DNA from: an uncultured Bacteroidales bacterium
GTDB lineage: Bacteria > Bacteroidota > Bacteroidia > Bacteroidales > JAKIYJ01
DNA: 63,737 nt
Direction: 5' to 3'
Assembly (NCBI GenBank): GCA_964504265.1
Contig: CAZDEU010000004.1
Coordinates: forward strand, 1-63,737
Made by a program: the position numbers and the translations under genes. The notes under the pieces are model-generated. The model was not told the origin of the DNA. It saw nothing but the letters and a program-made list of their open reading frames with translations, and made no database searches. This document shows, piece by piece, positions 30,916 through 63,737 of this stretch (within the stretch, counting starts at the first letter, position 1; each line of letters opens with the position of its first letter).

Positions 30916-30919
30916 TTTT

Positions 30920-33451: not shown

Positions 33452-33496
33452 TTTCTTCTTTGAATTTTAATAATTTTTATAATTTTTTTTTGATTA

Positions 33497-33543: not shown

Positions 33544-33554
33544 AAAATTAAATT

Positions 33555-34064
33555 TTAATTATAAGCAACAGTTACATCAAAGGTGCCGATGTATAAACCA
33601 GGTGTTTGGTTAGCATCAACATGTAAGTCTGCACCTACGTTTAAATCAGCTTCACCAAGTGCGTCAAGAGTGCCAGCAGCACCAAGGCTTGATACAAAAT
33701 TATCTACTGTCATGTCATCAGAACCTGATGAAATGATAATAGATGTAGGTAAAGCAATTGAAAAAGTAGCATTGGCATACCCTTGAATTTCAAAGTTTGC
33801 TTCGTTACCATCGTTTGTAGCAATAAGAGTAGCGCCACCAGTGCTAGTACGGTTACCTGTTGTAGCATCAATAGTTACTGTTCCAATTGCAGTTCCAGCA
33901 GCTATATCGCCAAAATCAAGATCAACAATTTTGTTAATCTGTAAAGGTTGTACAATGTTAGCTGTTGCATTTGCTGTTTCAGTTGCAGATGATGTTTGAG
34001 CTTTTAATTGATTTGTAAAAGCAATCATTAATAGTCCAGCAAAAATTAAAATTGTTTTTTTCAT
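33555..34064 (-). CDS. DUF4402-type pilin-like protein (putative major subunit)
   Basis: Signal peptide LKA|Q; alternating N-terminal strand ATETANATANIV; LDFGDI; C-terminal GLYIGTFDVTVAYN; own promoter and 3' hairpin. Confidence 0.82.
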   Translation of the reverse strand: MKKTILIFAGLLMIAFTNQLKAQTSSATETANATANIVQPLQINKIVDLDFGDIAAGTAIGTVTIDATTGNRTSTGGATLIATNDGNEANFEIQGYANATFSIALPTSIIISSGSDDMTVDNFVSSLGAAGTLDALGEADLNVGADLHVDANQTPGLYIGTFDVTVAYN

Positions 34065-34115
34065 GATAAATAAAAGTTTAATTAATAATTATTTTGTTTT
34101 GTTTGAACCGTACTT

Positions 34116-34132
34116 TTCAATACTTATGCCAA
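34116..34132 (-). promoter_or_regulatory. Sigma54 -24/-12 promoter (TTGGCATAAGTATTGAA)
   Basis: TGGCA-N6-TTG spacing as in the RpoN consensus (GA rather than GC at -12), 51 nt before the pilin start. Confidence 0.7.
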
Positions 34133-34158
34133 AAAAAATTAAATATTATTTTTCTGAA

Positions 34159-34171
34159 AATCAATATGTTG
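34159..34171 (+). promoter_or_regulatory. IHF-type binding site (AATCAATATGTTG)
   Basis: Exact match to WATCAANNNNTTR, located between the sigma54 promoter and the candidate UAS. Confidence 0.5.
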
Positions 34172-34213
34172 AAAAAATATATATTTATTATGATTTTCAA
34201 TATTTATTCAAAT

Positions 34214-34240
34214 TGGGAAAAATTGTCCCATTATGAAACA
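34214..34240. promoter_or_regulatory. Candidate upstream activator sequence(s)
   Basis: Overlapping TGGGA-N7-TCCCA (34214-34230) and TGT-N11-ACA (34224-34240), about 80-110 bp upstream of the -24 element. Confidence 0.5.
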
Positions 34241-34250
34241 AGACAAATGC

Positions 34251-36833
34251 TTATTTGTCATTTTTTCTTTTGAAAACAAAATTAATATCGCTAATAAAAT
34301 CTCCTTCGTAAGAATCATTAATATAAATTTCCTGATTTATATTAGATGTATAATAATTCAAATTATTTAACTGCGTAATATCTAACGATATATTATGTTT
34401 GCCTGGCGATAACCCCAAATAATTATAATATCCATTCTTATCTGTTAAACATTTATGTACTAAAACTTCTTTATTATTATAAATATTTACAATAATACGG
34501 GGAGCGGGTTTTTGTTTACCTTTTTCATCTTCAATTATTATTTGCCCCTCAATTTCACCCATTGGTTTAACCGGTACATATATTTTTTTAATCTGATTAG
34601 GTTCAGGATAAACTGCTATAGTTTCGTAATCAAGCATCCACGCAATACTTTTAAATCCTGCATTTTTAACAGAAACAATATATTTTGTATATGGTTCTAA
34701 AGAAACAAACCTGTGAACTGTATCATTATTATACATTACTCTAATACCCTTACTAATGCCAACCGATGCGTCTGCTACTAACTCTTCGTCGGGTTGTCTG
34801 ATACTATCGTGATTAATATCAAGAAATACCATTACATCTATAATACCTTTACCAACATTATAACGGTTAGTAGGGCATACAGGCTGAACTGCATTACTAA
34901 ATATTAAACTTCCCGAAAAAGATTGATTGCTGAACCAATTTTTTTTATTCAGACCGAAACTAAATGAACTTCTTAACGCATTAAGGTCTATATAGGCATT
35001 TGCCATAAACATAGTTGACTTTTCAGGAAAATTATGGTTACACGAAATACTGGCAAAAACATTTTTATTAAATCTTTTTTGTGCTTGTAACCTGATGTTA
35101 GATAATGAAGATTTTTTTAAATCAGCAAACGAATAGGCATAAATACTCCACTGATTAGGCAAAAAAACAGACGCATTTAGTCCCGCTGTAATAACATCAA
35201 CATTTTTGAACGACATTGCCGAAATCATCCCAAGATTAAAACGCCGGTATACCAACGATAGATTAGATTCATAAATATGTATTCCACCTACAATAGTGTT
35301 ATTATATCTATATGTATTTTTAAAATATCCTTTAACTTTTTTAAAAGAAAGAGGAATATTAGTGCTTAGCATAGCTTCACATTTGTTTTTAGTTAAAACA
35401 GCATCCTGCTTATGGTCATATAGCTTATAATCACTTTCGATAGAAAAATTATTTTTCATTCTGTACATTAAAGATGCCTGTTGAAAAGCTTTATCAATAT
35501 AAGAATAACTAAAGATAGTATTATTAAAAGGTATAACCGAAGCCCTTACAAAAGGTAAATATCTGCTATACTTATTGCGTTCGAAGGTTTCGTAGCCTGC
35601 ACTAATAGTAGCTCTTCTGTTTATTCCATACGAAAAAATTCCATGTGCAAATCTATAAGCAAGGCTATCAAATGTAAAACCTGAGTATATCTGATATTCT
35701 AGTTTGTTTTTAGGAACAAAAATAAAAGGTATATTAATAACATATTCTTCAATTTTTTCTTCGCCCCAGGGCCCATAGTGTTTAAGAATAATAGTTGAAT
35801 TACCATAAACAAGCGGAATTTCAAATTTATATTGTCCGTTAACATCGGCAGTAGTAAAATCTAACAAAACATTATTAACATAAAGCTCAATTTCCCAGCC
35901 TGGCTTGGATTCCTTTTGCAGAACAAAAGTCCCATACGATTTTCTGAACGTAGTAGGAGTATTCGATAGTTTGGCACCCAACAAGCTAGTCGTAACCTGC
36001 GAAAGAAGAGGAATATTGATAACACCAATATCAACCTGACGCAAATATTTTCTATCATTATCTACAAAATACCAGTTAGCAGCTTGATTATACATTTGAA
36101 TATTTTCAGAATTATCTAATTTGGTTTTTATATTTAGTTCGCCTCCTAATAGCTCTGAGCCTAAATTAGTTTTCATAGAATAAGACGGCATACTTTCTTC
36201 AATTTGTTTCATACTTAAATTCCAATCAACTACAGCACCGCTTAATATTTTATGTTTTCTGTAGAACACAGTATCAACAGGCATATCACCAGTTAAAGAC
36301 ATTAAATTTTCACGAATTTTCTCAATTCTTAATAATTTTACTACAGGTAATTCTACGTCAGAGTGTAAAAATACAGTTAAAGAACGAAAATCAAATTTCA
36401 TTTTAAAACCGAACAAATATTCATAAATAAGAATAGGCATAAACAAATCGTTATATGTTTTAATGTACTGTTTGTTAGTTGCCTGATACATTTTATCTCT
36501 GAAAACAAACTTTTTAGTTATAGTATTAATTTTATAAAAATTTTGTTCGTTGCCAATATATCCCCATACAGAGTCAATTTCCATTGAATGGGCAACAAAT
36601 ATTTTTAACAGGTTAAACATGCCAATAACAGGCATATATACCTGATTATCATAATATATTGCATCAATATTAAAATAACCTAAATTTTCGACCGAAAGCT
36701 TTACATAAAACTCGTCATAATAATCTTCATTATTTTCAAAATATACATTGTTTTGTGCTTTAGAGTTAAATATGCCAATAAAAGAAACTACAGAAAAAAC
36801 TATAAAATAAATACAAATTTTTGCTTCTTTCAT
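34251..36833 (-). CDS. Usher-like outer-membrane protein with C-terminal SdrD-B/carboxypeptidase-regulatory-like domains
   Basis: Signal peptide SKA|Q; 860 aa; beta-strand-rich; plug-like segment ELYVNNVLL...G.YKFEIPL.YG...I.LK.YGPWGE; VFLDIN.D..RQPDE; TD.NGYY...L.PG. Confidence 0.68.
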   Translation of the reverse strand: MKEAKICIYFIVFSVVSFIGIFNSKAQNNVYFENNEDYYDEFYVKLSVENLGYFNIDAIYYDNQVYMPVIGMFNLLKIFVAHSMEIDSVWGYIGNEQNFYKINTITKKFVFRDKMYQATNKQYIKTYNDLFMPILIYEYLFGFKMKFDFRSLTVFLHSDVELPVVKLLRIEKIRENLMSLTGDMPVDTVFYRKHKILSGAVVDWNLSMKQIEESMPSYSMKTNLGSELLGGELNIKTKLDNSENIQMYNQAANWYFVDNDRKYLRQVDIGVINIPLLSQVTTSLLGAKLSNTPTTFRKSYGTFVLQKESKPGWEIELYVNNVLLDFTTADVNGQYKFEIPLVYGNSTIILKHYGPWGEEKIEEYVINIPFIFVPKNKLEYQIYSGFTFDSLAYRFAHGIFSYGINRRATISAGYETFERNKYSRYLPFVRASVIPFNNTIFSYSYIDKAFQQASLMYRMKNNFSIESDYKLYDHKQDAVLTKNKCEAMLSTNIPLSFKKVKGYFKNTYRYNNTIVGGIHIYESNLSLVYRRFNLGMISAMSFKNVDVITAGLNASVFLPNQWSIYAYSFADLKKSSLSNIRLQAQKRFNKNVFASISCNHNFPEKSTMFMANAYIDLNALRSSFSFGLNKKNWFSNQSFSGSLIFSNAVQPVCPTNRYNVGKGIIDVMVFLDINHDSIRQPDEELVADASVGISKGIRVMYNNDTVHRFVSLEPYTKYIVSVKNAGFKSIAWMLDYETIAVYPEPNQIKKIYVPVKPMGEIEGQIIIEDEKGKQKPAPRIIVNIYNNKEVLVHKCLTDKNGYYNYLGLSPGKHNISLDITQLNNLNYYTSNINQEIYINDSYEGDFISDINFVFKRKNDK

Positions 36834-36907
36834 CAGAAATAATTTTTTTATAATTACACCTTATTATATAGCACAATAAAAATTTGTATTAATAATAAAC
36901 AACATAT

Positions 36908-48395: not shown

Positions 48396-49256
48396 TCAAT
48401 ATCTATATTCATGAAATTTAGATGATCCGCCACTTCTATAGGCATCACAGCGTTTCGAGAAAGGACTTTTGAGCGAATATGTTATAAAAATTCCAATAAA
48501 AGAATACCAGTCATTATTTTGAGAATTACCTCTTTGTAGCCCTTCGTGTGCAGCATTACCATCACTACTAATAGATCTGTCGGCAAGTGCAGCAGCAATG
48601 GAAGTATTTTCGGCTGCTAATTTTTCAGTATCAACATAAGTAGTACTTACATCATCAATATAATCAGTAAAAGTTTTTCTCATACTCCACTCACCGCCTA
48701 TACACCAACTATTTCCTATACTATATTTAACACCTAATCCAAAAGGGATAGAGATTGCAGTAAGAGAATATTTGTTGCGTTCGGGCATAAAAGAAGTACC
48801 TTGTCCTTCAGTTCCAAGTGGTTGCAAGTCGTATAAAACTCCATTATAATATGCTTGCGGATTAAAATGAAACACAGCTAGACCTGCGAACATATAGGGT
48901 GAAAAATACATTTTGCTTCCTTTGCCCGTAACATAAGGGAAAAAATTAAGTTCAAGTTGTGCAGATATGTCAGTAATAGGAGAACGAAAGCTAAGATTTC
49001 TAAATTCATTATGTTTAATTACAGCATCATCAGATTGAATAGTGCCGTAAAGGCCGTTCAATTTAAAAGCCCATCTAGGATTAATGTTATAGCGGTATAT
49101 TAAGCCGGCGGCTGGTTTAGCCATTGCAAAAGGTGTAGTAGGGTTAATATCGCCCATATAATATGAATAACCCAAAAACAAACCAGCTTCAGAGCGTTGA
49201 GCCTCAATAGTAGAAAAAGCCGAGAGGGTCAGCAAAAACAGAAGAGTTCGTTTCAT
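48396..49256 (-). CDS. porG: T9SS protein PorG (DUF6089 beta-barrel); start re-called at MKRT (ORF track extends to 49337)
   Basis: Signal peptide, YMGDINP, RNLSF.S, SPYMFAG, TFTDYIDD, DWYSF; C-terminal Cys (KRCDAY); position directly upstream of uppS-bamA. Confidence 0.72.
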   Translation of the reverse strand: MKRTLLFLLTLSAFSTIEAQRSEAGLFLGYSYYMGDINPTTPFAMAKPAAGLIYRYNINPRWAFKLNGLYGTIQSDDAVIKHNEFRNLSFRSPITDISAQLELNFFPYVTGKGSKMYFSPYMFAGLAVFHFNPQAYYNGVLYDLQPLGTEGQGTSFMPERNKYSLTAISIPFGLGVKYSIGNSWCIGGEWSMRKTFTDYIDDVSTTYVDTEKLAAENTSIAAALADRSISSDGNAAHEGLQRGNSQNNDWYSFIGIFITYSLKSPFSKRCDAYRSGGSSKFHEYRY

Positions 49257-49476
49257 GTAATTAAAGAATTGATTATTAAAGGTATCATAATAAACTCGCA
49301 AGTTTTTAATCATTTCCATTTGTGTTTTTTCAAACATGCTCGTTTTAAAAAATCATATTTTAACAAACAGTTGATAATTCAATTATTAGATTTGTTATAA
49401 AAAAACAACAACTTACATGTAAAATACCAAAAACTTATCAACTATATGTTATATGGTGATGCGAGAATATAATACC

Positions 49477-50418
49477 CTAATATCTAAGTTTTGGTACTAC
49501 TGAAGCAGATGTTGGTATTTTATATGTAACGGAAAAAAGTGCAAAAATGTATGCGTCTCTGTCAAAAGGGTCGCCTCTTTGCTGACCGGCTGCAGTTTGT
49601 CCTTCGTCAATTTTCACCCATGGGTCGGAAGTATTGCTAGGATCAGCGAAATATCTTGCGAGTTCGCCGAGTTCACCTTTAGCGGCATAAATAGCATCGG
49701 GGTCAAAATAAGTAGTACTAACATCATCCATGTAATCGGTAAAAGTCATTCGGTAACCATATTCAAAACCAACAGACCATTTATTGTCGATAGCATATTT
49801 AAAGCCTATTCCATAAGGGATAGTAAATTGCACAAGATTATATTCATCACGAGTAGGAACAAGACCTTGCCCTTCGGTAGAAAGAGGTTTAAGTTGGTAC
49901 CAATCGCCTTTGTATTTAGCTTTTGGGTTAAAATAGAAACCGCCTACGCCTGCAAACAGGTATGAAGAAATATGAATAGATCTAAGTCCTTTAACTCCTT
50001 CGAGATTATATCGATGACCTTCTCTTTTGAATTCAGTAAAATAAAATTCAGCTTGAGCAGACCATTCGAGAAGGTATGATCTGAAATGAAGGTTACGATT
50101 GCTTCTTGCTTCTTCTTTAGTAAATTTATCGTGACCACCAATCCAACCGTACAAAAGATTTACTCTAGCGCCAAAAAGTCGGTTAAACATAATACCATAA
50201 GCACCATGGAAGCCTGGTCTAATACTAGGGAAGTCGAAATCCCTTAAACCATTAGTACCAATACGATTAGCACCGCCGAGTTCACCTAAAAAATTGGTTG
50301 CTGTGAAACCAAAAGTAAGATACTGGTCTTTACCTTTTAAAATTCCTTGAGCAAACAAATTATCTGATAATATCAGAGAAATCACACTTATAATTAGTAA
50401 TAATTTTTTCATTTTCAT
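49477..50418 (-). CDS. DUF6089-family outer membrane beta-barrel (PorG paralog)
   Basis: NFLGELGG, RNLHFRS, L.PLSTEGQG, TFTDYMDDVSTTY, RGDP..RDAY; shares blocks with the adjacent PorG. Confidence 0.78.
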   Translation of the reverse strand: MKMKKLLLIISVISLILSDNLFAQGILKGKDQYLTFGFTATNFLGELGGANRIGTNGLRDFDFPSIRPGFHGAYGIMFNRLFGARVNLLYGWIGGHDKFTKEEARSNRNLHFRSYLLEWSAQAEFYFTEFKREGHRYNLEGVKGLRSIHISSYLFAGVGGFYFNPKAKYKGDWYQLKPLSTEGQGLVPTRDEYNLVQFTIPYGIGFKYAIDNKWSVGFEYGYRMTFTDYMDDVSTTYFDPDAIYAAKGELGELARYFADPSNTSDPWVKIDEGQTAAGQQRGDPFDRDAYIFALFSVTYKIPTSASVVPKLRY

Positions 50419-53572: not shown

Positions 53573-53790
53573 AAGGGTACAAATATTGCAAAAAAATCTG
53601 AAAAAACTAAAGTTTTAAAAAATATTTATTTTTTTTTCAAAATTTTTCAGAAATTAGTTGCAATTTCAGAATCAAATGGACTCAAATAGTCTAAATAGTT
53701 GCAGAAATATTTATATTTGCCACAAAGACACGAAACTACAAAAAGATTTACAACATTATACGAATAAATTATACTCTTAATATTTCCCAA

Positions 53791-54981
53791 CTAAATAACG
53801 TTTTCTTCTTTTAGCTTTTTTATTTCTTCATTACTTAGCCCAAGCCATTTAGAATATATCTCGAAATTATGCTGCCCTATCTCAGGTATTAGCCCTTTGG
53901 TAGGCAATTCCGGAATTGAAGTCATTTTAATAGGATTACCTGCAATAATAACTTTTCCTGTTTGTTCAGATGACACCTCTACAAGCATATTTCTTGCTTT
54001 AAGTTGAGGATTCTCCATTACCTTATCAATAGTATTTATTGGACTATGTGGAATACCAGCATTTTCAAAAATTTCGCACCATTCTGCTACAGTCTTACTT
54101 GCAAAGATATTATCTAAAATTGGAATCAAAACGTCAATATTGTTAGTTCTGTCTTCATTACCAGTAAATCTATCGTCTTCAGTAAGATTTGAAGCTCCAA
54201 TAACATTACACATTTTAATCCATAAGTTATCATTGCCAATACCTATTACAAAATAATCATCTTTTGCCTTAAATGCCTGAAAAGGAGTAATAGTTGGATG
54301 CCTATTGCCTATTGGCTGTGGTGCGACTCCATCAATCTGATACCTTAACATAGCATTTTCCAATATAGCTAACTGACAATCAAGCATGGATATATCAATT
54401 TGTTGTCCTTTACCAGTTATAGTACGATGATATAAAGCTGAAGTAATGCCTATTGCGGTAAATAAAGAAGCAGTAATATCTCCAATCGACATGCCAACTC
54501 TTGTAGGTTTGCTATTTGCCCAGCCTGTAATACTCATAATTCCTCCCATAGCCTGAGCAAGTATATCGTAAGAAGGTTTATTAGAGTAAGGTCCAGTATG
54601 TCCAAAACCAGACGATGAAGCATAAATAAGCCGTGGGTTAATCTCTTTTAATTTATCCCAGCCAATACCTAGTTTCTCCATAGTGCCTGGTCTGAAATTT
54701 TCGACTAACACATCAGCTTTTTCGACTAATTTTAGTAATATTTCTTTACCTTTTTGAGTCTTAAGGTTAAGAGAAATACTTTTTTTCTCTCTGTTAATAC
54801 TCATAAAATAAAGACTTTTTCCATTTCTGAAAGGACCAAACTGACGACTATCATCGCCTGTATTTGGTATTTCAACTTTAACAACTTCTGCACCTAAGTC
54901 ATTCAATAACATAGTGCAAAAAGGACCTGCCAGAACTCTTGACAAGTCCAAGACAACAACATTTTCTAAAGGTTTAGACAT
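53791..54981 (-). CDS. CoA-transferase family III (CaiB/BaiF/Frc-like)
   Basis: VLDLSRVLAGPFC, GDDSR, NREKKS, ENFRPG, SSGFG.TGP, catalytic Asp in SIGDITA. Confidence 0.93.
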   Translation of the reverse strand: MSKPLENVVVLDLSRVLAGPFCTMLLNDLGAEVVKVEIPNTGDDSRQFGPFRNGKSLYFMSINREKKSISLNLKTQKGKEILLKLVEKADVLVENFRPGTMEKLGIGWDKLKEINPRLIYASSSGFGHTGPYSNKPSYDILAQAMGGIMSITGWANSKPTRVGMSIGDITASLFTAIGITSALYHRTITGKGQQIDISMLDCQLAILENAMLRYQIDGVAPQPIGNRHPTITPFQAFKAKDDYFVIGIGNDNLWIKMCNVIGASNLTEDDRFTGNEDRTNNIDVLIPILDNIFASKTVAEWCEIFENAGIPHSPINTIDKVMENPQLKARNMLVEVSSEQTGKVIIAGNPIKMTSIPELPTKGLIPEIGQHNFEIYSKWLGLSNEEIKKLKEENVI

Positions 54982-54983
54982 TA

Positions 54984-57329
54984 TTATTTCTTATTCACTT
55001 TTTTAAATTCCAACGCAACTTTTTCTGCCGTAATTGGCATTGATTTTAATCTTATACCTAATCCATCTTCAATAGCATTAGCCACCATAGGAGCTGCTGG
55101 TAACATAGTATGTTCTCCAACACCTCTGGCGCCAAAAGGTCCATCAGGCTGAGCAACTTCAACAATAATTGGGACTACCTCATCAGGAATATCCATTGAT
55201 GTAGGTATTTTATAATCTGTAAAATTTGGATTAAGCATACGCCCTTTTTCATCAAATCGCATATCTTCGTATAGTACAGTTGCTAAGCCCTGTAATAAAC
55301 CACCAGTTATTTGCCCTTTTACAAGATCAGGGTTTATCGCTTTTCCAACATCAAGTGCTTCAACAGCTTTAAGAACTTTCATTTTACCAGTTTGCTTGTC
55401 AATTTCTAATTTAATAGCTGCTGCTCCAACAGTATAATGAACATTTGGATGCCCGCCCTGGCTTGTTTCGGGGTTACTATTAGTTGATGAAAATTCAGGC
55501 ATAAAAATTCCTCTACCAATTATAGGACCACCTTTATATGTGCCATCTTCAGCTTGAATTCCATAAATTACAAAATCTTTCAGAGGTAATTTAAAATCAG
55601 GTTTTGTATGACACTTAACAGTTTCATCTTCTAAATAAAGCATATCTTCGGGAAGGTGTTTGGTTCTTGATACAAGACTTATAATTTGAGTACGAGCATC
55701 TATAGCAGCTTTTTTAACTGCATTACCAGTTGACCAAGTAATATGTGAAGCTACAGTTTGCCATTCATAAGGATTACGGTCGGTATCTGGGTTTTCAGAT
55801 CTTATTTTTGATGGCGGCACACCAAGAATTTCGCCTGCTATTTGAGCCATAACAGTTAAAAAGCCTTGTCCTATATCCATTGCCGACACTAAAATATTAA
55901 TACTACCATCTTCATTAAACTTTAAAAATGCTGAAGAAGACGCATTAGGAGGCATAGCAGGAGCTTTCCACAACAATGAAAAACCTTTGCCAATAACTTT
56001 ATTTGGATCATTCGAAACTTCTTTTTTACCCCATTCAATTTCAGTTTTAACTTTTTCTATAGCCTCGTGTAGTCCATTAGGGTTCATATCAGCACCATAA
56101 GCCAGCGAGTCGCCTTCCTTTATAGCGTTAATTTTTCTGAATTCAACGGCATCCATGCCTAATTTATCGGCAATTCTGCTCATGTGTGATTCTAAACCGA
56201 ACAAAAATTCTGAATATCCAAAACCTCTGTATGCACCTGTGGGGGGCATATTAGTATATATACAAACAGAATCAATAGAAAGGTTAGGGATACGATAAGG
56301 ACCTATAGCTGATAAACCTGCTGCATTTACAACATTAGCACCATATTCAACATAAGCACCTGCATCCCAATATAATTGATGCTGCATAGCCGTTATTTTA
56401 CCGTCATTTTTAACACCAATTTTTAGTTTTGCAACAACACCAAGACGCTGATAGGTATTATAAAATTCCTGGGCTCTTGTCCAACGAATTTTTATAGGGT
56501 TACCTTTTACTTTTGTAGCAAGAGCGGCTGATAATATTTCCATAGTAACGCCAGCTTTACCGCCAAATCCACCGCCAACGTGAGGTGCAATAACCCTTAC
56601 ATCTTTATGTTGGACACCCAATTTTGAAAGTGCTTCAGCAAAAAGGTGTCTTTGAGTAAATGGAGATTGAGAAGAAGCCCAAACGGTTAGCCTGCCCGAT
56701 AAATCAAATTTTGCAATAGCAACGTGAGTTTCAAGAGCACAATGTGCATATCTAGGAACTTCGTAAGTGTCGTCTAAAATAAAATCAGCTTCATTAAAGC
56801 CTTTTTCAGGTTCACCTTTTCTGATTTTCCTCCAATGTGCAATATTGGTTCCGTCTTGAGGAAAAAACCAAGGAACATGTTCATAAGTGCCAAGGTCGGG
56901 GTGTATTCTTATAGTATCATCTTTCAAAGCATCCATTTGGTCAAGAACTTCAGGTAAAGGTTCGTATTCCACTTTTACAAGTTTGGCAGCTTTTAATGCA
57001 GCTTTTTGATTTCTTGCAACAACCGCTGCAACCTGTTCTCCAACAAATCTAACCCTATCCTGTGCAAAAATATATCTATCTTTTGTATATAAACCGAATT
57101 TAAAAGGGAAATCTTTACCAGTAAAAACTTTTACAACTCCTGGAATTTTTTCTGCTTCAGAAATATCAATACTTTTTATAATAGCGTGAGCATAAGTACT
57201 TTCAACTATTTCCGCATACATTAAGTTAGGTCCAAATTCTAAGTCATCAGAATATAAAGCTGCGCCTGAAATTTTTTCTAATCCGTCTATTCTTTGAACA
57301 GATTTACCGACATATCTCAAATCATTCAT
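54984..57329 (-). CDS. Xanthine dehydrogenase-family molybdopterin-binding large subunit
   Basis: AHAII, GGGFGGK, YRGFG, DIGQG, G.AINP..V.GQI.GG..QG, GARGVGE (catalytic Glu). Confidence 0.93.
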   Translation of the reverse strand: MNDLRYVGKSVQRIDGLEKISGAALYSDDLEFGPNLMYAEIVESTYAHAIIKSIDISEAEKIPGVVKVFTGKDFPFKFGLYTKDRYIFAQDRVRFVGEQVAAVVARNQKAALKAAKLVKVEYEPLPEVLDQMDALKDDTIRIHPDLGTYEHVPWFFPQDGTNIAHWRKIRKGEPEKGFNEADFILDDTYEVPRYAHCALETHVAIAKFDLSGRLTVWASSQSPFTQRHLFAEALSKLGVQHKDVRVIAPHVGGGFGGKAGVTMEILSAALATKVKGNPIKIRWTRAQEFYNTYQRLGVVAKLKIGVKNDGKITAMQHQLYWDAGAYVEYGANVVNAAGLSAIGPYRIPNLSIDSVCIYTNMPPTGAYRGFGYSEFLFGLESHMSRIADKLGMDAVEFRKINAIKEGDSLAYGADMNPNGLHEAIEKVKTEIEWGKKEVSNDPNKVIGKGFSLLWKAPAMPPNASSSAFLKFNEDGSINILVSAMDIGQGFLTVMAQIAGEILGVPPSKIRSENPDTDRNPYEWQTVASHITWSTGNAVKKAAIDARTQIISLVSRTKHLPEDMLYLEDETVKCHTKPDFKLPLKDFVIYGIQAEDGTYKGGPIIGRGIFMPEFSSTNSNPETSQGGHPNVHYTVGAAAIKLEIDKQTGKMKVLKAVEALDVGKAINPDLVKGQITGGLLQGLATVLYEDMRFDEKGRMLNPNFTDYKIPTSMDIPDEVVPIIVEVAQPDGPFGARGVGEHTMLPAAPMVANAIEDGLGIRLKSMPITAEKVALEFKKVNKK

Positions 57330-57802
57330 TTTACATCCTCCTTTTTTGAAGTTGCTAAAACGGCATCAATAATAGGTGTATAACCTGTACAACGGCATAA
57401 ATTACCTGCCAAAGCTTCTTTAACTTCCTCTCTCGTTGGGTCAGGATTACGCATCAGCAGTTCGTGGGCAGAGATTATAACGCCAGGAGCACAAAAACCG
57501 CATTGAAATGAATTCATTTCAACGAAGTTTTTTTGAAGAGGGCTAATATCTGGATTAGATAATCCTTCTACTGTAGTTACTTCATGCTGATCGACTTCAA
57601 CGGCAAAAATAAGACAACTTCTAACGCTTTTATTATCAATTAGTACTGCACAAGCACCACAATCGCCTCTGTCGCAGCCGCATTTAGGACTTTTAACTCC
57701 TAACTTATCGCGTAAAACATCAAGCAATATGTCGTTGTTGTCAACATCAATATTGCGGGTTTCTCCGTTAAGTTTAAAAGTAATATTAGTTTTAGTATTC
57801 AT
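57326..57802 (-). CDS. Molybdenum hydroxylase small [2Fe-2S] subunit
   Basis: KCGCDRGDCGAC, C, QCGFCAPG, GNLCRCTGY. Confidence 0.95.
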   Translation of the reverse strand: MNTKTNITFKLNGETRNIDVDNNDILLDVLRDKLGVKSPKCGCDRGDCGACAVLIDNKSVRSCLIFAVEVDQHEVTTVEGLSNPDISPLQKNFVEMNSFQCGFCAPGVIISAHELLMRNPDPTREEVKEALAGNLCRCTGYTPIIDAVLATSKKEDVK

Positions 57803-57803
57803 A

Positions 57804-58697
57804 TTAACCTCCTAAATAATTAAATGGTTCAATTTTTTCGCCTTTGCATCTTCTTTCAGCAATTTGCAAACCTCGTTCAAGCATAATTCCAGCTAAATGT
57901 AATCGATATTCTTTACTTGCACGGATATCGGTTATCGGAGAAATCTCTTGATTTATAATACTTTTTGCTTGTTCAATAATATCATTTGACAAAGGCTTAT
58001 TATTCAACAATTCTTCAATTTTTGAAATTCGTTTTGGAATTGGACCCACTGCACAAAATGCAATTTTATAATTATACTTATTATCAACCATAATACCTAC
58101 ACCGGCTTGAGCTAAATCTTCGCCCGAATATCTACCTAATTTAACATAACAAGTGCCATTAGGTTTTGACGGTAAAGAGATTTCTACATTTACAACAACT
58201 TCGCCAGTTTTTATAGCAGTTTTTTTAGGACCTATAAACCACTCGTTAATTGGTATGCTACGTTTACCGTTTATACTAATAAGATTAACCTTAGCGTCAT
58301 AAACCAATAAAGGAGGGCCTGAATCAAGTGAAGGTACTGCAGAACAAATATTACCTACCATAGTAGCTCTATTTCTAGTGCCAACTGAAGCAACTGTTCG
58401 TGCAGCTTCCCAAAGTAAATATAATTCCGATTTAATAATTTCGGAATCTATGATTTGCGAAAAAGTAACGCCAGCTCCAATAAAGATTTTATCGCTATTA
58501 ATTTCAATTTTATCTACATTATTAATAGCTTTAATATCAATGATTGCATCGGGTTTTTCAATATCTTCTTTAATTTTAAGCACAAGATCGGTGCCACCTG
58601 ACAAAATTTTGGCAGAGGCACCAAACTTATTAAGAAGTTCTATTGTTTCTTCCCAACTTTGTGGCTTAAAATATTCAAAATCGTGTGTAGCAGGCAT
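57804..58697 (-). CDS. Molybdenum hydroxylase FAD-binding medium subunit
   Basis: LSGGTDL, IGAGVT, RNRATMVGN, PITDIRAS.EYR; no [4Fe-4S] insert. Confidence 0.93.
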   Translation of the reverse strand: MPATHDFEYFKPQSWEETIELLNKFGASAKILSGGTDLVLKIKEDIEKPDAIIDIKAINNVDKIEINSDKIFIGAGVTFSQIIDSEIIKSELYLLWEAARTVASVGTRNRATMVGNICSAVPSLDSGPPLLVYDAKVNLISINGKRSIPINEWFIGPKKTAIKTGEVVVNVEISLPSKPNGTCYVKLGRYSGEDLAQAGVGIMVDNKYNYKIAFCAVGPIPKRISKIEELLNNKPLSNDIIEQAKSIINQEISPITDIRASKEYRLHLAGIMLERGLQIAERRCKGEKIEPFNYLGG

Positions 58698-58725
58698 AAT
58701 AAAATCTCCTTATAATTTTGATAAA

Positions 58726-59538
58726 TTACGGTTCAAAAGCGATAATACGACACATTGAAGATTCCAGTTCAATACCGCGCAATGGGAATAAACCAATCCA
58801 CAAACGTTTATTGCTTACTTTCGCAATGTCGCCTCCAATGTTTTCAGCATGAACAAGTTTTTTAGGGAATAATTTAAGGTGCATTACCTGATAAAATTCT
58901 TCGTACGGGAACATTTCTTCCCAAGTTTTACCATATTTGGCTTTTAGTTTGTTTTCGGCTTCAACAAAACTTTTAGGATGCCAATCTTTTATAATAGTAT
59001 TCATTGGATGGTCGGCACTACCGCAGTCAACACCAATCCATTTTATTTTCATTTCCAAAGCCCATTTATGAAAATCAGGACTTGGACCAGGATGTTTTAC
59101 AAAATACCGTACTTCGTCTGATTCGGGCTGATCCCATGCATATTTATGATAACCTGTATTAATAAGTAGTATATCACCTTTTTGGATATCTACTTTACTC
59201 ATAAGCATTTCGGGTGTGTAAAGGTCGTAATCTCCAACTTCGTTAGATATGTCAACTACTACACCTGAGCCAATCCATTCTTCAATAGGAACATCACCAA
59301 TAGAGCGGCCGCTTGCGTGAAAGTGAATTTCGCCATCAATGTGAGTACCTACGTGGTTTGATGTCGTAATAATCTGACCATTAGCACCTTGTCCCATGTG
59401 AGCGCCAGCAATTCTTTTAAAATATTGAATTCCTAATGGCATATAACTTGGCCAAGGTGGAGTGTGAATACTTAAACGTTGTGTAAGGTCATAAACCTTT
59501 AGTTCACTCATAAATTTTAAAAAATCATTTGTTTCCAT
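58726..59538 (-). CDS. Cyclase-family metal-dependent hydrolase (kynurenine formamidase fold)
   Basis: NHVGTHID (HxGTHxD) motif, GDILLINTG, IGVD..SADH, HAEN. Confidence 0.9.
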   Translation of the reverse strand: METNDFLKFMSELKVYDLTQRLSIHTPPWPSYMPLGIQYFKRIAGAHMGQGANGQIITTSNHVGTHIDGEIHFHASGRSIGDVPIEEWIGSGVVVDISNEVGDYDLYTPEMLMSKVDIQKGDILLINTGYHKYAWDQPESDEVRYFVKHPGPSPDFHKWALEMKIKWIGVDCGSADHPMNTIIKDWHPKSFVEAENKLKAKYGKTWEEMFPYEEFYQVMHLKLFPKKLVHAENIGGDIAKVSNKRLWIGLFPLRGIELESSMCRIIAFEP

Positions 59539-59571
59539 AGTTGTGAGTTTAAATTATTTTATTGTGATTAA

Positions 59572-60975
59572 TTATTTTAAAGTTTCGATAAATCCATTAA
59601 AAGCATTGATAAAAGGTTGTGTTGGAGCACTTAAAACACCAGCTCCAACCTGACCAATGCCTGGTTCTTTGTGAGCTACACCAGTATCAATAAATGGTGT
59701 AATATTTTTTTGGACTACTTTTACAACATCAACACCTGTAGGTGTACCTCTGAAATTAAGATTAGGAATTTGATAAATATTATTTTCACCAACAGTAATT
59801 TCGTACATAGTTAAAGAATAATTCAAGGCATCGGAGGCATTTCCGCCTACAAACTGAACAATAGCAGGAGCTGCGGCAATTGCAAAACCGCCAAGACCAC
59901 CTGTTTCGGTAATAGCACTGTCGCCAATATCAGGATTAGCATCATCTTTTGTAAAGCCCGGAAAATAAAGAGCATCGGGTACAGGCGATTTACCTGTAAA
60001 CCATTTAGTTCCTGTACCAGCCAATTGAATACCCCATTCAGTTCCATTACGAGCCATAACCACAGCCATGCTGCTTCCTTCAATATTACGTGCAGCATCA
60101 AGGACAACTTTACAGACAGGCATACTTAAGTTAAGGAAAAAATGGTCGTTGCCGTTAATAAACTCAAGAACTTTTGCAGCATCTTCTTTTTTGTCGGCAG
60201 TAAGAACTATAGCAGGGGCAAGGGTTCTGTAGAGTAACGAAGTCCCTGCACGGTTTCTGTTATGAACTTCATCGCCCATGTGTAAAGCCTGAGCAATAAG
60301 ATTTTTTAAATCAATTTTACCAATGTGCTCAACAGCTTTTTTCAGTACAGGGTAAAGTACATCTTCCATCCATCGAAGACGTGTTATAACTTCTTCACTA
60401 AAAGCACCATAACGTAATACTTTACCAAGCCCTTCATTCAAAGTACAATAAGCATAATTACCGTATTTTTCGTTTTTAATAATAAAAACAGGCATAGAAG
60501 GAGAAACAATACCAGCCATAGGTCCAACAGCCGAATGTTCATGACATGGTGCATATTCAATTTGTCCTGAAGAAGCTAATTTTTCTGCTTCTTCGGTTGT
60601 TGAAGCCATTTTTTCGTATATCAAAGCACCAATTATTGCACCTCTTGTTGGTCCACACATATTTTCCCATTTTACTGGAGGACCCGAATGAAGTATAAGA
60701 TTTTTTTTCATTCCGGGTATTACGTTAATGGCAACATCTAAGCCTACCAAAAAAGGAGTTCCGCTTAGAACTATGTTTAATGCTTTTTTGTTTGCCTCTT
60801 CAATAAAATCTTTATTTTTCTTTAGCAGATTATCTGCTTCAGGGTTATTAATCAATGATGGCTTCCAGTCGAGCTGAATTACATTTATACCATTTTTTTC
60901 AAGGTCTGACGAAAAACTTTCAAGACCTGTATTAATAACATTAAGTTTTTTTTCGAATAAATCTTTAACAGCCAT
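59572..60975 (-). CDS. DUF1116 protein (YlbE/YahG; AllG-like oxamate carbamoyltransferase subunit)
   Basis: ILHSGPP, PCHEH.AVGPMAG, NEGLGKVLRYGA, AL.MGDE.HNRN, RNGTE.GI, PDIGDSAITE, GVAHKEPG.GQVGAG. Confidence 0.9.
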   Translation of the reverse strand: MAVKDLFEKKLNVINTGLESFSSDLEKNGINVIQLDWKPSLINNPEADNLLKKNKDFIEEANKKALNIVLSGTPFLVGLDVAINVIPGMKKNLILHSGPPVKWENMCGPTRGAIIGALIYEKMASTTEEAEKLASSGQIEYAPCHEHSAVGPMAGIVSPSMPVFIIKNEKYGNYAYCTLNEGLGKVLRYGAFSEEVITRLRWMEDVLYPVLKKAVEHIGKIDLKNLIAQALHMGDEVHNRNRAGTSLLYRTLAPAIVLTADKKEDAAKVLEFINGNDHFFLNLSMPVCKVVLDAARNIEGSSMAVVMARNGTEWGIQLAGTGTKWFTGKSPVPDALYFPGFTKDDANPDIGDSAITETGGLGGFAIAAAPAIVQFVGGNASDALNYSLTMYEITVGENNIYQIPNLNFRGTPTGVDVVKVVQKNITPFIDTGVAHKEPGIGQVGAGVLSAPTQPFINAFNGFIETLK

Positions 60976-62531
60976 TATTTGTCTCCTTTCAACTTAATAA
61001 TATTTGCACCAAGAATACTTGCTGCAGCATTTGATTCTACTACAATAACGCCGGAATTTTGTAGCGAATATACAATTTCTTTTTTATTTTGAGGATCATT
61101 AGCTGTTCCAGTAACTGAACAAATAATAACCAAATCATTACGCTTTGCATTAATTCTGTTTAAAACAGGTAATAATTCAGATAAAGGCTCGTTGTGTGAA
61201 CCGTAACCAATAACGATGTCAAGTAAAATTACAGCAACTTCTTTATCTATAGCTTCTTCCTCAAATTTTTTCATTCTAAGCGAAAAATCAATCATTGGAT
61301 GAGGTCTACCAACAGTAAATTCATCATCTCCCAAATCAATAACAGTATTTTCAACAGACTTCCAAACATTTTGAAGTTTAAAATCTTTATTTAAAGGTAT
61401 ATTACTATTAACAAAACCAATGATATCTTTAAAAATCAACTGAGTTTCATCGCATAATGTGCCACCGCTGAAAAGACCTCTTAAATATTTTCCATTCGTC
61501 TTTTTGGCAAGTTCGTCAGCTCGTTTTATTAAACTTTGATTACGTTTAATTATATCTGCTTTAACATCTTGGTAGTCTAAGTTTTTTGATAATTTAACGG
61601 CAATTAATGCAGCTTCTTCAAGAGTTACGGCAGAAATCATACCTGCTTTTTCTGCAATATCATGATTAGCACCAATGAATATTGCAACAATAGGTTTATT
61701 GATTTTTTTAGCTTCGTCTGCAATTTTTGCAAGTGTATCAGTATGCGGAGGTTTAGACACCAAAAGAATAACTTTAGTGTTGTTGTCTTCGGCAAGAGCT
61801 TTCATAGCCTGAATAAACATTATTCCGCCAATTTCTTTTTTTACATCTCTACCGCCGGTACCAATAGCTTGTGAAATACCACAGCCAGCTTCAGAAATAA
61901 GACAACTTACTTCTTGCAAACCTGTTCCCGATGCAGCAACAATGCCAATATCACCTTTATTAACAGCATTTGCAAAAGCTAAGGGAACTCCGTTAATAAT
62001 GGCAGTTCCACAATCAGGTCCCATAACCAATAATCCTTTTTCAGATGCAATAGTTTTTAGTTTCAACTCATCTTCAACTGCAATATTATCCGAAAATATC
62101 ATAACATGCAAACCCCTGTCAAGAGCCTTATATGCTTCGTAAGCAGCATATTTGCCTGCAACTGAAATTATTGAAAGATTGGCATCAAGCATTTTTTCTA
62201 ATGCACTGTCAAGACTCTTAGGTTTAAAACCAACATTATCGTCGCTTTTTTTATTTCTGATATTTGCAAGCAATTCTTCAATTTTAGAAATTGCATTATC
62301 AATACCTTGTTGCGATTCGGCTTTTATAGCAATCAATAGGTCAGTGTCGCCACTATTTTCAAATTCTTTTAATAAAATACCGGACGCATCAAGTATTGAT
62401 CGGTTTTCTTTAGTTCCCATCACAACTCCTGAATCAATAATGCCCGGCAGTTTGTTTATTTCGCCTGCAACCAGCATCAGACTGACTGAGTCGAAATATT
62501 CTCCTTTTCTGATAATTCCTTTTGTGTACAT
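60975..62531 (-). CDS. fdrA: FdrA-family acyl-CoA synthetase-like protein (AllF-like)
   Basis: Y.DSVSLM, ISVAG.YAA, MIFSDN, MGPDCGT, ASGTGLQE, IGTGGRD, GLFSGGTL, FTVGRPHPMID. Confidence 0.92.
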   Translation of the reverse strand: MYTKGIIRKGEYFDSVSLMLVAGEINKLPGIIDSGVVMGTKENRSILDASGILLKEFENSGDTDLLIAIKAESQQGIDNAISKIEELLANIRNKKSDDNVGFKPKSLDSALEKMLDANLSIISVAGKYAAYEAYKALDRGLHVMIFSDNIAVEDELKLKTIASEKGLLVMGPDCGTAIINGVPLAFANAVNKGDIGIVAASGTGLQEVSCLISEAGCGISQAIGTGGRDVKKEIGGIMFIQAMKALAEDNNTKVILLVSKPPHTDTLAKIADEAKKINKPIVAIFIGANHDIAEKAGMISAVTLEEAALIAVKLSKNLDYQDVKADIIKRNQSLIKRADELAKKTNGKYLRGLFSGGTLCDETQLIFKDIIGFVNSNIPLNKDFKLQNVWKSVENTVIDLGDDEFTVGRPHPMIDFSLRMKKFEEEAIDKEVAVILLDIVIGYGSHNEPLSELLPVLNRINAKRNDLVIICSVTGTANDPQNKKEIVYSLQNSGVIVVESNAAASILGANIIKLKGDK

Positions 62532-62566
62532 TTTTTTAAAATAATTTATAAAGGTAAAAAATAAAT

Positions 62567-63397
62567 TTAATTTAGATTTTGTTTAATTAATAAATTTTTC
62601 ATTGTTAATAAAAAACCAGATAAAATATCTTCTCCCGAAGTAGAACCGCATGATAACAAAGGATTAACAGCTTGCTGAACTTCTGAATTAATATTTTTAA
62701 ATAAAAAATCAAGAACATGGATAAAACTACTGTTAAACCAACCGTTGCAAGCAGCTTTTAGTTGATAATCAACAATAATGTTAGAACTGCGTGAAAGTTC
62801 AAAAACATTTTTTCTTAATACTGAAGTATCAATGTTGGTAATTTGTTCCCAAACAAACAAAGCGTATAAATAACCTGTAATAAAATCGTCGCCTGAAGGT
62901 GTTAACCCCTTCCCTTTACCTTTAATTAAAGGTATCCCATTAAGAGAACCATCTTCAAATAAAGTATTTATACCTTTTTTCAGACTAATGTATAGTTCTT
63001 TTTCAAAACCTTTCAAATTAGTTTGAGAATTATTTTGAACAAAAAGCAATGAGTTCACGTTTAATAAGCCTTTCAGAGTATAAATTATAGTATTAATTTT
63101 AAAAAGTAAAACAGTTAAATCAATTTCCTGAAAAATATAAACGGAAGACCATCGCTTTTCATTGTCAATATTAAAAGAAAAAACTTTAGTATTAATATTT
63201 GAATTTGTAACTTCGATATAATCAATAACATCCGAATTAAAATCATCAACAATAATATTAAAAGGTCCTGATGGTTTGTCTGAAGTAGCAATAGTAATAA
63301 AGCTATTATCGTTAAATAAATTAACAACATTTTTAAAAGTGCTGTGAACTTTATAAAAACCTTTGTCAATATGGTCGCCTAAGTTTATAAGCTTCAT
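62567..63397 (-). CDS. DUF2877 protein (YlbF/YahE; AllH-like)
   Basis: VHSTF..VVN, G.G.GLTPSGDDF..G, G.TSG.D.LSG motifs. Confidence 0.88.
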   Translation of the reverse strand: MKLINLGDHIDKGFYKVHSTFKNVVNLFNDNSFITIATSDKPSGPFNIIVDDFNSDVIDYIEVTNSNINTKVFSFNIDNEKRWSSVYIFQEIDLTVLLFKINTIIYTLKGLLNVNSLLFVQNNSQTNLKGFEKELYISLKKGINTLFEDGSLNGIPLIKGKGKGLTPSGDDFITGYLYALFVWEQITNIDTSVLRKNVFELSRSSNIIVDYQLKAACNGWFNSSFIHVLDFLFKNINSEVQQAVNPLLSCGSTSGEDILSGFLLTMKNLLIKQNLN

Positions 63398-63419
63398 TAT
63401 TTTTTAAATTTTATCAGCA

Positions 63420-63427
63420 CAAAGTTA
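63420..63427 (-). promoter_or_regulatory. Candidate -7 promoter element (TAACTTTG) for the catabolic operon
   Basis: TAnnTTTG match 22 nt upstream of the first gene. Confidence 0.5.
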
Positions 63428-63507
63428 TAAGTAATTTTTAAATTTGAAAAAAATCAAATTTTTTGGTAGCTCCCTATGAGCGACCTTATTGTAGAAAGTG
63501 AAATTAA

Positions 63508-63632
63508 GATTGACGAAGTACGATTGACGAAATACGATTGACGAAGTACGATTGACGAAGTACGATTGACGAAGTACGATTGACGAAGTACGATTGGCGA
63601 AGTACGATTGACGAAGTACGATTGACGAAGTA
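63508..63632. repeat. Tandem repeat, 9 x 14 bp (GATTGACGAAGTAC)
   Basis: Counted directly: units start at 63508, every 14 nt; unit 2 has AAATAC, unit 7 has GATTGGC, unit 9 is truncated. Confidence 0.97.
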
Positions 63633-63737
63633 AAAACTAAGATAAAAGTATATTATATATCGATAAAACGAATCATCAATAAAATCGTAATTCGTAAATC
63701 TAAAATCGTAAATATCAATTTACATAGCATATTTCCA

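Follow-up and report, generated by a model that had tools for sequence, protein, structure and literature searches.

The aerobic oxidative pathway of pyrimidine catabolism, as found in Rhodococcus and Mycobacterium, uses a uracil/thymine dehydrogenase with molybdenum (Mo), iron-sulfur (Fe-S), and flavin centers, a barbiturase, and a ureidomalonase. This pathway is mentioned in [PMC4051656, PMC3758960], and its barbiturase has the 'Toblerone' fold of AtzD, not the cyclase fold [PMC3758960]. Enzymes of the cyclase family (PF04199) hydrolyze amides, a lactam (isatin), and a cyclic diketone [PMC4243253, PMC6117287, PMC10470551], and isatin hydrolase, which acts on a lactam, and dihydrophloroglucinol cyclohydrolase, which opens a ring, both belong to this family [PMC6117287, PMC10470551]. 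A further described system is AllFGH (FdrA-YlbE-YlbF) of Escherichia coli; the purified enzyme interconverts carbamoyl phosphate plus oxamate and oxalurate plus inorganic phosphate, which is the only biochemistry known for this three-subunit family [PMC11326118]. Here we consider a stretch of DNA from an uncultured Bacteroidales bacterium (contig CAZDEU010000004.1, 63,737 nucleotides; "the window" below means this whole stretch), in which an AllH/AllF/AllG-like trio, a cyclase-family hydrolase, a three-subunit Mo-hydroxylase, and a family III coenzyme A (CoA)-transferase are encoded by one eight-gene operon at positions 53791-63397.

Judged from its sequence, this cluster is read as a dedicated catabolic operon for a small cyclic ureide, for which uracil, perhaps together with thymine, is the best guess (probability about 0.4); the ring would serve as a source of carbon, nitrogen, and possibly ATP. 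The general scheme, consisting of Mo-dependent hydroxylation, hydrolytic ring opening, AllFGH-type ureide cleavage, and amide and CoA chemistry on an N-heterocycle, is considered likely, and the route would be an oxygen-independent counterpart of the oxidative pyrimidine pathway whose enzymes are unrelated to the known ones. Two combinations of features point in this direction. First, two Ala residues in the Mo active site, together with a uracil-type permease in related loci, argue for a pyrimidine rather than a purine. Second, the UraA-type permease, a malonamidase-E2-like amidase in relatives, and a thiolase-containing variant of the cluster suggest a pyrimidine-derived C3 (malonyl-type) product. 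An earlier, first-pass annotation of this DNA had proposed the same steps in general form: hydroxylation, opening of the ring, cleavage of the AllFGH type, and activation of a small acid with CoA. This logic fits the conserved gene order and the amidase of relatives; the oxamate- or oxalate-like product that it envisaged is not favored, given the same permease, amidase, and thiolase variant.

Layout and expression of the operon

Eight intact open reading frames (ORFs), all on the minus strand, fill 53791-63397 exactly in the ORF listing of the window (Table 1). In order of transcription, the intergenic gaps are 35, -1, 33, 28, 1, -4, and 2 bp, and the sizes of all eight ORFs agree with those of homologues at other loci. 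The Pfam matches of the eight proteins lie far over the gathering scores. All eight genes are covered by contigs of four metatranscriptomic runs, and these contigs cross five junctions (CoA-transferase/Mo subunit, Mo/FeS, FeS/FAD, cyclase/AllG, and AllG/AllF), with the proviso that DNA carry-over is possible in contig data; transcripts of the window copy occur in this material in wastewater and digester communities, and the host organism itself turns up in wastewater, landfill, bioreactor, and digester metagenomes. Thus, the extent of the cluster, its eight genes with tight gaps and overlaps, and the gene identities given by the first-pass annotation are borne out by the ORF list, Pfam, and NCBIfam, and its operon behavior by the tiny gaps and the junction-crossing contigs. 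The list of functions that it had failed to see (allantoinase, carbamate kinase, transporter, Mo cofactor genes, and others) is also correct for the window: the other 54 kb encode no allantoinase, carbamate kinase, amidase, nucleobase permease, or Mo cofactor genes, and the allantoin genes allB/C/D/E are absent from the window as a whole.

Table 1. Genes of the operon, in order of transcription, and the region upstream of it.
Feature	Coordinates	Strand	Remarks
AllH/YahE-like subunit, 276 aa	62567-63397	minus	PF11392, 81 bits, residues 160-265; operon gene 1
AllF/FdrA/YahF-like subunit, 518 aa	60975-62531	minus	CoA_binding + Ligase_CoA (Pfam); NCBIfam NF004760 FdrA
AllG/YahG-like subunit, 467 aa	59572-60975	minus	PF06545 AllG, 336 bits; start overlaps AllF stop by 1 nt
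Cyclase-family metal-dependent hydrolase, 270 aa	58726-59538	minus	PF04199, 121 bits
Mo-hydroxylase FAD-binding subunit, 297 aa	57804-58697	minus	FAD_binding_5 + CO_deh_flav_C (Pfam)
Mo-hydroxylase subunit with two [2Fe-2S] clusters, 158 aa	57326-57802	minus	Fer2 + Fer2_2 (Pfam); 4-nt overlap with Mo gene
Molybdopterin-binding catalytic subunit, 781 aa	54984-57329	minus	Ald_Xan_dh_C + MoCoBD_1 + MoCoBD_2 (Pfam)
Family III CoA-transferase, 396 aa	53791-54981	minus	CoA_transf_3, 427 bits, residues 5-372; last operon gene here
Upstream non-coding region to window end, presumed promoter region	63398-63737	minus	holds tandem repeat 63508-63632

The GC content of the cluster is 0.347, versus 0.300, but its GC content at third codon positions is that of the flanking housekeeping genes. 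This equality gives no sign of recent acquisition, and recent horizontal transfer into the host genome was rejected on this ground despite the higher overall GC.

The presumed promoter region contains a tandem array of the 14-bp unit GATTGACGAAGTAC (8.9 copies, 96% matches), about 110 bp upstream of operon gene 1. Independent assemblies of the same organism stop 165-218 bp upstream of the AllH-like gene, that is, at this array, and every contig with an identical AllH ends at the repeat, so that none extends the sequence further upstream. There is no sigma-54-type promoter upstream of the operon, and scans for sigma-70 promoters and terminators around it gave background levels only. Searches for a riboswitch or leader gave no Rfam family for the window or for four related loci, nor, at a relaxed threshold, for the upstream 438 bp.

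Conservation of the gene set

With the AllG-like protein as the query, a scan of GTDB (one genome per species) returned at least 545 stretches that encode a relative, and 80 returned loci plus Pfam-annotated contigs were analyzed with flanks of 10 kb. The query has thousands of relatives, the best 120 of which are all at least 72% identical. Such a neighborhood survey, which the first-pass annotation had suggested as a check, recovers the same collinear gene set in 80 or more loci from more than 15 phyla. AllG is immediately followed by the cyclase gene in 62 of 71 informative loci, and the cyclase by the three xanthine dehydrogenase (XDH)-type genes in 47 of 58; an AllH-like gene is located upstream of AllF in most loci. 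Order and strand are as in the window in nearly all loci with cyclase or XDH genes; in two from Elusimicrobiota (L042 and L081), the cyclase-XDH block is upstream of the AllHFG genes. The flanking genes vary between loci, so that the cluster behaves like an independent module. Chance falls far short of explaining the grouping, and the cluster is a conserved functional unit. That these genes could be mere neighbors without a common pathway is hardly conceivable, since they are collinear in more than 45 loci of more than 15 phyla amid unrelated flanks, their start and stop codons overlap, and transcript contigs span their junctions.

The carriers include Bacteroidales, Cloacimonadota, Ignavibacteria, Verrucomicrobiota, Kiritimatiellia, Lentisphaerae, Elusimicrobiota, Myxococcota, Spirochaetota, Chlorobiota, Acidobacteriota, Zixibacteria, Eisenbacteria, Rifleibacteriota, and others. 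Across phyla, identity to the window proteins is remarkably high given the distances, with 69-84% for the cyclase, 67-78% for the Mo subunit, 66-79% for AllG, and 47-65% for AllF; AllH is the least conserved part, with 23-36% identity between phyla. The cluster had been thought unusual for Bacteroidota, a view that does not hold: among the matches listed, uncultured Bacteroidales are the closest and commonest carriers, and they also supply the best AllG matches. The anaerobic setting postulated for it is consistent with the carriers (Cloacimonadota, Elusimicrobiota, Bacteroidales, and others) and with the wastewater, landfill, and digester samples.

In L006, L020, and L038, the cluster genes are interspersed with small ORFs of 125-136 aa (for example, L020:14126-14503). 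Their motif, judged by eye to be of the 'GxxExxY'/PD-(D/E)XK type, suggests selfish insertions that leave the cluster undisrupted. Further neighbors in L042, L072, and L081 are uninformative; from their sequences alone, they were judged to be housekeeping genes (NusA, IF-2, TruB, RibF-like, and others).

The AllH/AllF/AllG-like trio

All three AllFGH subunit families are encoded together, with matches over the Pfam and NCBIfam cut-offs; the AllF-like protein, for example, scores 511 bits with the FdrA model NF004760 (cut-off 433). The likeness to AllFGH noted in the first pass thus stands as family membership, but it is no closer to AllFGH than to the orphan YahEFG. In BLASTP comparisons, identity is 39/43/35% to E. 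coli AllF/G/H and 42/46/26% to YahF/G/E, the values for the AllH-like protein covering its C-terminal half. The distances to the two E. coli sets are therefore roughly equal, while the gene order and the F/G boundary are yah-like, and orthology to allFGH cannot be distinguished from orthology to yahEFG. The boundary is evident from the N-terminal ~50 residues of the AllG-like protein, which correspond to the C-terminal tail of E. coli FdrA (residues 8-47, at 60835-60954 of the window, equal FdrA profile positions 508-547); thus, it is unlike that of allFG and resembles that of yahFG. In a metagenome-assembled genome (MAG) of Verrucomicrobiota (L023:8411-11401), AllF and AllG are fused in one 997-aa ORF.

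The AllF-like protein has a fold like that of the alpha subunit of succinyl-CoA synthetase (SCS). In an alignment, however, the GHAGA phospho-histidine motif of SucD is missing from it, as it is from the two paralogues of E. coli, and on account of this missing residue, a CoA-ligase mechanism of the classical type was discarded. The family motifs GPDCGTAIING, GTGGRD, and GRPHPMID are retained. By analogy with AllFGH, the trio would probably cleave an N-acylurea by phosphorolysis. In E. coli, each of the two paralogue sets comes with a carbamate kinase gene (allFGH-allK and yahEFG-yahI). A search for such a gene (arcC), suggested in the first pass, found none: neither the window nor the 10-kb surroundings of any of 82 loci encode a carbamate kinase homologue. 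This, together with the lack of allantoin genes and the coupling to a cyclase and a Mo-hydroxylase, argues that the substrate of the trio is probably something other than oxalurate.

The cyclase-family hydrolase

The gene next to AllG encodes a protein that scores 121 bits with PF04199 (gathering score 23) and whose metal motif, H-V-G-T-H-I-D-G-E-I-H (His/His/Asp/His), is intact when tested against HxGTHxDxxxH. Among solved structures, KynB (4cob, 47 bits) and isatin hydrolase are closest to it. It does not qualify as a kynurenine formamidase, since the arylformamidase equivalog TIGR03035 gives only 56 bits against a cut-off of 223, and no kynurenine-pathway genes lie near it. The cyclase is proposed to be the ring-opening enzyme of the operon. 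A barbiturase of the AtzD/cyanuric-acid-hydrolase fold is found neither among the eight proteins nor among the recurrent neighbors.

CoA-transferase, amidase, and permease

By sequence comparison, the CoA-transferase is nearest to transferases for small dicarboxylates. Among NCBIfam models, those for CoA:oxalate CoA-transferase (383 bits, cut-off 522) and for succinate-glutarate and succinyl-CoA:mesaconate transferases come closest, and the best solved relatives are YfdE (4hl6, 331 bits) and SUGCT; neither the YfdE cut-off nor that of Frc (306 versus 504) is reached. Orthologues that are 57-69% identical follow the Mo gene in loci of Bacteroidales, Cloacimonadota, and Chlorobiota. In this arrangement (variant A), which is carried by Bacteroidales, most Cloacimonadota, and one Chlorobiota locus, the transferase is followed, in every locus that extends far enough, by an amidase-signature enzyme of ~430 aa; in L091, the amidase comes directly after the Mo gene, without the transferase. 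The window copy is an exception to variant A, with a 218-bp spacer (53573-53790) and then a CBS gene after the transferase, and no amidase remnant was detected in the spacer or elsewhere in the window by comparison with L003-L008, L089, and L090. The canonical unit in this lineage has nine genes, with the amidase next to the CoA-transferase, and not the eight that had been described. The best full-length solved relative of the amidase is malonamidase E2 (145 bits).

Variant B is found in Ignavibacteria, Verrucomicrobiota, Lentisphaerae, Elusimicrobiota, some Cloacimonadota, and Rifleibacteriota. It has no transferase but instead a set of a 249-aa protein (U249), an Ltp-type thiolase, and a DUF35 protein. 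Because a thiolase-superfamily enzyme needs an active methylene, this variant argues for a C3 product rather than an oxalyl one. The U249 family has ~3000 relatives, all annotated as hypothetical; its genes always precede those of the Ltp-type thiolase and DUF35 and always lie beside AllF/AllG/cyclase genes (L020-L022, L026, L040, L049, L093, L094, and about 15 more loci; for example, L040:5254-6003). U249 has no Pfam, NCBIfam, or PDB profile match, and its AlphaFold2 model, with a mean confidence (pLDDT) of 44, is too poor for a fold search. Going by the order of its secondary-structure elements, it might be a GNAT protein, but this is a guess.

A permease gene adjoins the cluster in 10 loci, 8 of them from Cloacimonadota, and in 9 it is at the cluster end on the same strand. 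Its best NCBIfam model is the uracil permease UraA (359 bits, versus 299 for RutG and 223 for a xanthine permease), and its NAT signature motif begins with Glu (ENxGxxxxT). In the NAT/NCS2 family, a Glu start marks uracil transporters and a Gln start marks xanthine transporters. A 522-aa membrane protein after AllG in L030, at first suspected to be a purine permease, was dropped for lack of a Pfam match.

These genes bear on an oxalurate route, in which a five-membered ureide of the hydantoin or parabanate type would be oxidized and hydrolyzed to oxalurate, which would be converted to carbamoyl phosphate plus oxamate, and the latter through oxalate to oxalyl-CoA. In favor of this route, the trio shares homology with the enzyme whose activity on oxalurate was demonstrated [PMC11326118], YfdE (an oxalate CoA-transferase) and formyl-CoA transferase are the nearest known proteins to the CoA-transferase, and the amidase would suit oxamate hydrolysis. 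Nevertheless, this route is judged unlikely: allantoin-pathway genes and oxalyl-CoA decarboxylase are absent from the window and 82 neighborhoods (no thiamine pyrophosphate-dependent decarboxylase was found in the window or in the relatives' loci), the YfdE equivalog cut-off is missed, the permease that accompanies the cluster is of the uracil type, the amidase has its closest match in malonamidase, and the thiolase-superfamily module would have no obvious C2 oxalyl substrate. Furthermore, we know of no evidence that hydantoin or parabanate is an abundant anaerobic metabolite.

The molybdenum hydroxylase

When the Mo subunit is aligned with bovine XDH, E802 and R880 are both replaced by Ala, whereas F914 and the catalytic E1261 are retained; 43-44 of 45 cluster copies share this pattern of Ala/Ala with a retained Glu. 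The loss of the Glu and Arg that bind xanthine makes purines unlikely substrates. All NCBIfam equivalog cut-offs are missed (529 versus 780 for XdhA and 515 versus 995 for the alpha subunit of 4-hydroxybenzoyl-CoA reductase [4-HBCR]). The Cys residues of the FeS subunit are at 43/48/51/63 and 101/104/136/138. The FAD subunit has only four scattered Cys in its 297 residues and thus no [4Fe-4S] insertion of the HcrB type, which argues for a hydroxylase rather than a reductase. From these features, the enzyme is a predicted hydroxylase for a substrate other than xanthine and not a xanthine dehydrogenase. The E. coli XdhA protein (L095:2346-4604), which is annotated as a putative xanthine dehydrogenase, has Gln and Ala at the positions of bovine Glu802 and Arg880 in the alignment.

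Enzymes of the XDH family and AllFGH homologues are classically tied to purine catabolism, and the best NCBIfam names for the three subunits are XdhA/B/C. Consequently, the cluster might be viewed as a purine fermentation module, in which the Mo enzyme would act on hypoxanthine or xanthine, the cyclase would be a xanthine or urate amidohydrolase, and the trio would phosphorolyze a ureido-imidazole. Yet both xanthine-binding residues are replaced, the XdhA/PucD equivalog scores are all far under the cut-offs, the permease is not xanthine-type, the known clostridial purine route has no place for a CoA-transferase, an amidase, or a thiolase, and no formiminoglycine or glycine genes lie nearby. 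A purine module is therefore quite improbable, and of the rivals, it agrees least well with what the active site and the permease indicate.

A different possibility is raised by the solved structure that is by a wide margin closest to the Mo subunit, the alpha subunit of 4-HBCR (346 bits; the next match has 253). In a heteroaryl- or aryl-CoA pathway, the CoA-transferase or an FdrA-like CoA ligase would first make a thioester, the Mo enzyme would hydroxylate or dehydroxylate its ring, the cyclase would open a lactam or diketone, and the thiolase/DUF35 pair would shorten the chain. Such a pathway would account for the CoA-transferase or thiolase/DUF35 (BbsAB-like) module that is always attached to the cluster, and FdrA-type proteins do have an SCS-alpha fold with a CoA-binding domain. 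However, the FAD subunit lacks the Fe-S insertion of 4-HBCR, and the 4-HBCR equivalogs score about half of their cut-offs (515/995, 167/258, and 118/405 for the three subunits); proteins of the E. coli XdhA type score equally well. In addition, the AllF-like protein lacks the SCS phospho-histidine and has no ATP-grasp partner, the sole biochemically characterized member of the trio family is CoA-independent, and the amidase and uracil-type permease would be left unexplained. An aryl-CoA pathway is thus considered slightly less likely again than the oxalurate route.

The proposed route and its difficulties

All substrates and products named for the pyrimidine route are predictions, made from the observed gene content, order, conservation, transcription, and active-site features. 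In this route, the uracil-type permease would import the substrate, and the Mo/FeS/FAD hydroxylase would place a water-derived oxygen on C6 of uracil to give barbiturate (or 5-methylbarbiturate from thymine), with electrons passing through FAD to NAD+ or ferredoxin. The cyclase-family metallohydrolase would then open the non-aromatic barbiturate to ureidomalonate, which is an N-acylurea like oxalurate but has one CH2 more. With phosphate, the AllH/AllF/AllG-like complex would convert ureidomalonate to carbamoyl phosphate and malonamate, as AllFGH does with oxalurate; the carbamoyl phosphate could yield ATP through a carbamate kinase encoded elsewhere or enter biosynthesis. The amidase, which is adjacent in relatives and absent from the window, would release malonate and ammonia from malonamate, and the family III CoA-transferase would make malonyl-CoA, with decarboxylation to acetyl-CoA occurring elsewhere. 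In its fullest form, the cluster would represent an energy-conserving, oxygen-independent pyrimidine fermentation with a cyclase-family 'barbiturase' and phosphorolysis to malonamate and carbamoyl phosphate (one ATP); this is possible but doubtful.

Several observations weigh against the assignment to uracil. The F and G subunits of the trio are only 39-46% identical to those of either E. coli set, and the absence of a nearby carbamate kinase at 82 loci leaves the carbamoyl-phosphate step unproven. A CoA thioester is the substrate of the solved enzyme most similar to the Mo subunit, and the set with which this subunit was compared contains no genuine uracil dehydrogenase sequence. The permease is present at only 10 of the 82 loci, mostly in Cloacimonadota, and the window copy has neither permease nor amidase; the malonamidase match is itself modest, being tied with partial GatA matches. 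The proposed scheme does not explain the role of the thiolase/DUF35/U249 set. Finally, the cyclase and AllFG genes occur without adjacent XDH genes in 11 of the 58 informative loci, and so hydroxylation is not always coupled, unless XDH is encoded elsewhere in these genomes.

This last result is what would be expected of a late, replaceable step. In a rival reading, the order of reactions would be altered: the cyclase would open a uracil-type ring first, the trio would remove the carbamoyl group, and the Mo enzyme would be a late aldehyde oxidoreductase, converting, for example, malonic semialdehyde to malonate before CoA transfer. The Ala/Ala pair at the E802 and R880 positions is compatible with this, as aldehyde oxidases also lack these xanthine-binding residues. 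However, we know of no precedent for a hydrolase that opens the aromatic uracil ring before it has been oxidized or reduced, and the Rut pathway needs O2. Furthermore, the NCBIfam aldehyde-oxidoreductase models score under the XdhA and 4-HBCR models, and the amidase would be left without an amide. Such an order is regarded as improbable.

Other features of the window

The remaining 54 kb of the window contain envelope, exopolysaccharide (EPS), and housekeeping genes, encoding among others a CBS-domain protein, NAD kinase, UppS, BamA, OmpH, DUF6089 proteins, proteins with type IX secretion system (T9SS) tails, EPS functions, and valyl-tRNA synthetase. The T9SS sorting domains, DUF6089, and the UppS-BamA-OmpH block support an origin of this DNA in Bacteroidota, as do the best AllG matches, which come from Bacteroidales. 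At 27844-39777, three DUF4402 genes alternate with those of large T9SS C-terminal-sorting-domain proteins, and a sigma-54-dependent response regulator is encoded beside them at 38434-39777; this stretch may be a regulated surface or fimbrial locus that is unconnected with the operon. Two adjoining paralogous genes for DUF6089/outer membrane beta-barrel proteins, 313 aa each, lie at 48396-50418 between NAD kinase and UppS.

Significance

No paper found on the cluster, DUF1116/DUF2877, yahEFG, barbiturase/ureidomalonase, malonamate, or nucleobase catabolism in Cloacimonadota describes this set of genes, and the cluster is apparently highly conserved, widespread, and undescribed. The function of the AllFGH carbamoyltransferase family was reportedly assigned only in 2024 and for one substrate, with the Yah-type relatives remaining orphans. 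The present trio represents a third, very widespread branch of this family, and in hundreds of anaerobic species it is firmly tied to a hydrolase for ring opening and to a Mo-hydroxylase. If the pyrimidine route is correct, it would be a fourth bacterial strategy of pyrimidine catabolism beside the reductive, Rut, and aerobic oxidative ones, and one that conserves energy. It would involve new enzymes, a cyclase-fold barbiturase and a ureidomalonate carbamoyltransferase, would provide a first substrate for the orphan Yah-type branch, and would explain how many uncultured anaerobes in sludge and sediments (Bacteroidales, Cloacimonadota, Ignavibacteria, Verrucomicrobiota, Elusimicrobiota, and others) feed on nucleic-acid bases. 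Annotation would also gain, as many MAG genes now carry the labels 'xanthine dehydrogenase', 'acyl-CoA synthetase FdrA', and 'DUF1116'. Even with another substrate, the cluster is a well-defined and easily testable target, and its wide distribution, strong conservation, in situ expression, and direct testability give it high practical interest.

Comparison with known systems

The Mo enzyme shares with XDH and 4-HBCR the three-subunit build (Mo cofactor, two [2Fe-2S] clusters, and FAD) and the conserved catalytic Glu and Phe914. It differs from XDH, in which Glu802 and Arg880 bind xanthine, by Ala at both positions, and from 4-HBCR, whose beta subunit carries an Fe-S insertion, by the lack of this insertion in the FAD subunit. 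Similarly, the cyclase has the fold family and the metal-binding motif of kynurenine formamidase, isatin hydrolase, and dihydrophloroglucinol cyclohydrolase, but it belongs to an extremely conserved clade of its own that is tied to AllG, with only ~47 bits to the nearest solved member.

E. coli AllFGH and its partner AllK [PMC11326118] resemble the system considered here in having the same three adjacent subunit families, the conserved motifs, and no SCS phospho-histidine. However, the order is F-G-H there and H-F-G here, the F/G boundary is shifted by ~50 residues, and identity is 39-43%. The E. coli genes are accompanied by allK and allB/C/D/E, none of which lies near this operon, whereas the trio of the operon always occurs with a cyclase-family hydrolase and usually with a Mo-hydroxylase. 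The E. coli yahEFG-yahI-yahJ cluster, for which no functional data were found in the literature, has the same order (DUF2877, FdrA-like, DUF1116), similar sizes, and slightly higher identity (42-46%), and like the operon, it pairs the trio with a putative ring-opening hydrolase. In this case, though, the hydrolase is YahJ, of the amidohydrolase superfamily, accompanied by the carbamate-kinase-like YahI, and there is no Mo-hydroxylase, cyclase, CoA-transferase, or amidase.

The first two steps of the proposed route (uracil to barbiturate to ureidomalonate) would be chemically identical to those of the oxidative pyrimidine pathway. That pathway is aerobic, whereas the carriers of the cluster are anaerobes, and its ureidomalonase yields urea and malonate, whereas the AllFGH-type complex and the amidase imply carbamoyl phosphate and malonamate. 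Thus, the cluster resembles a hybrid, with steps 1 and 2 like those of the aerobic oxidative pyrimidine pathway and step 3 like the end of anaerobic allantoin degradation, and it is a member of neither.

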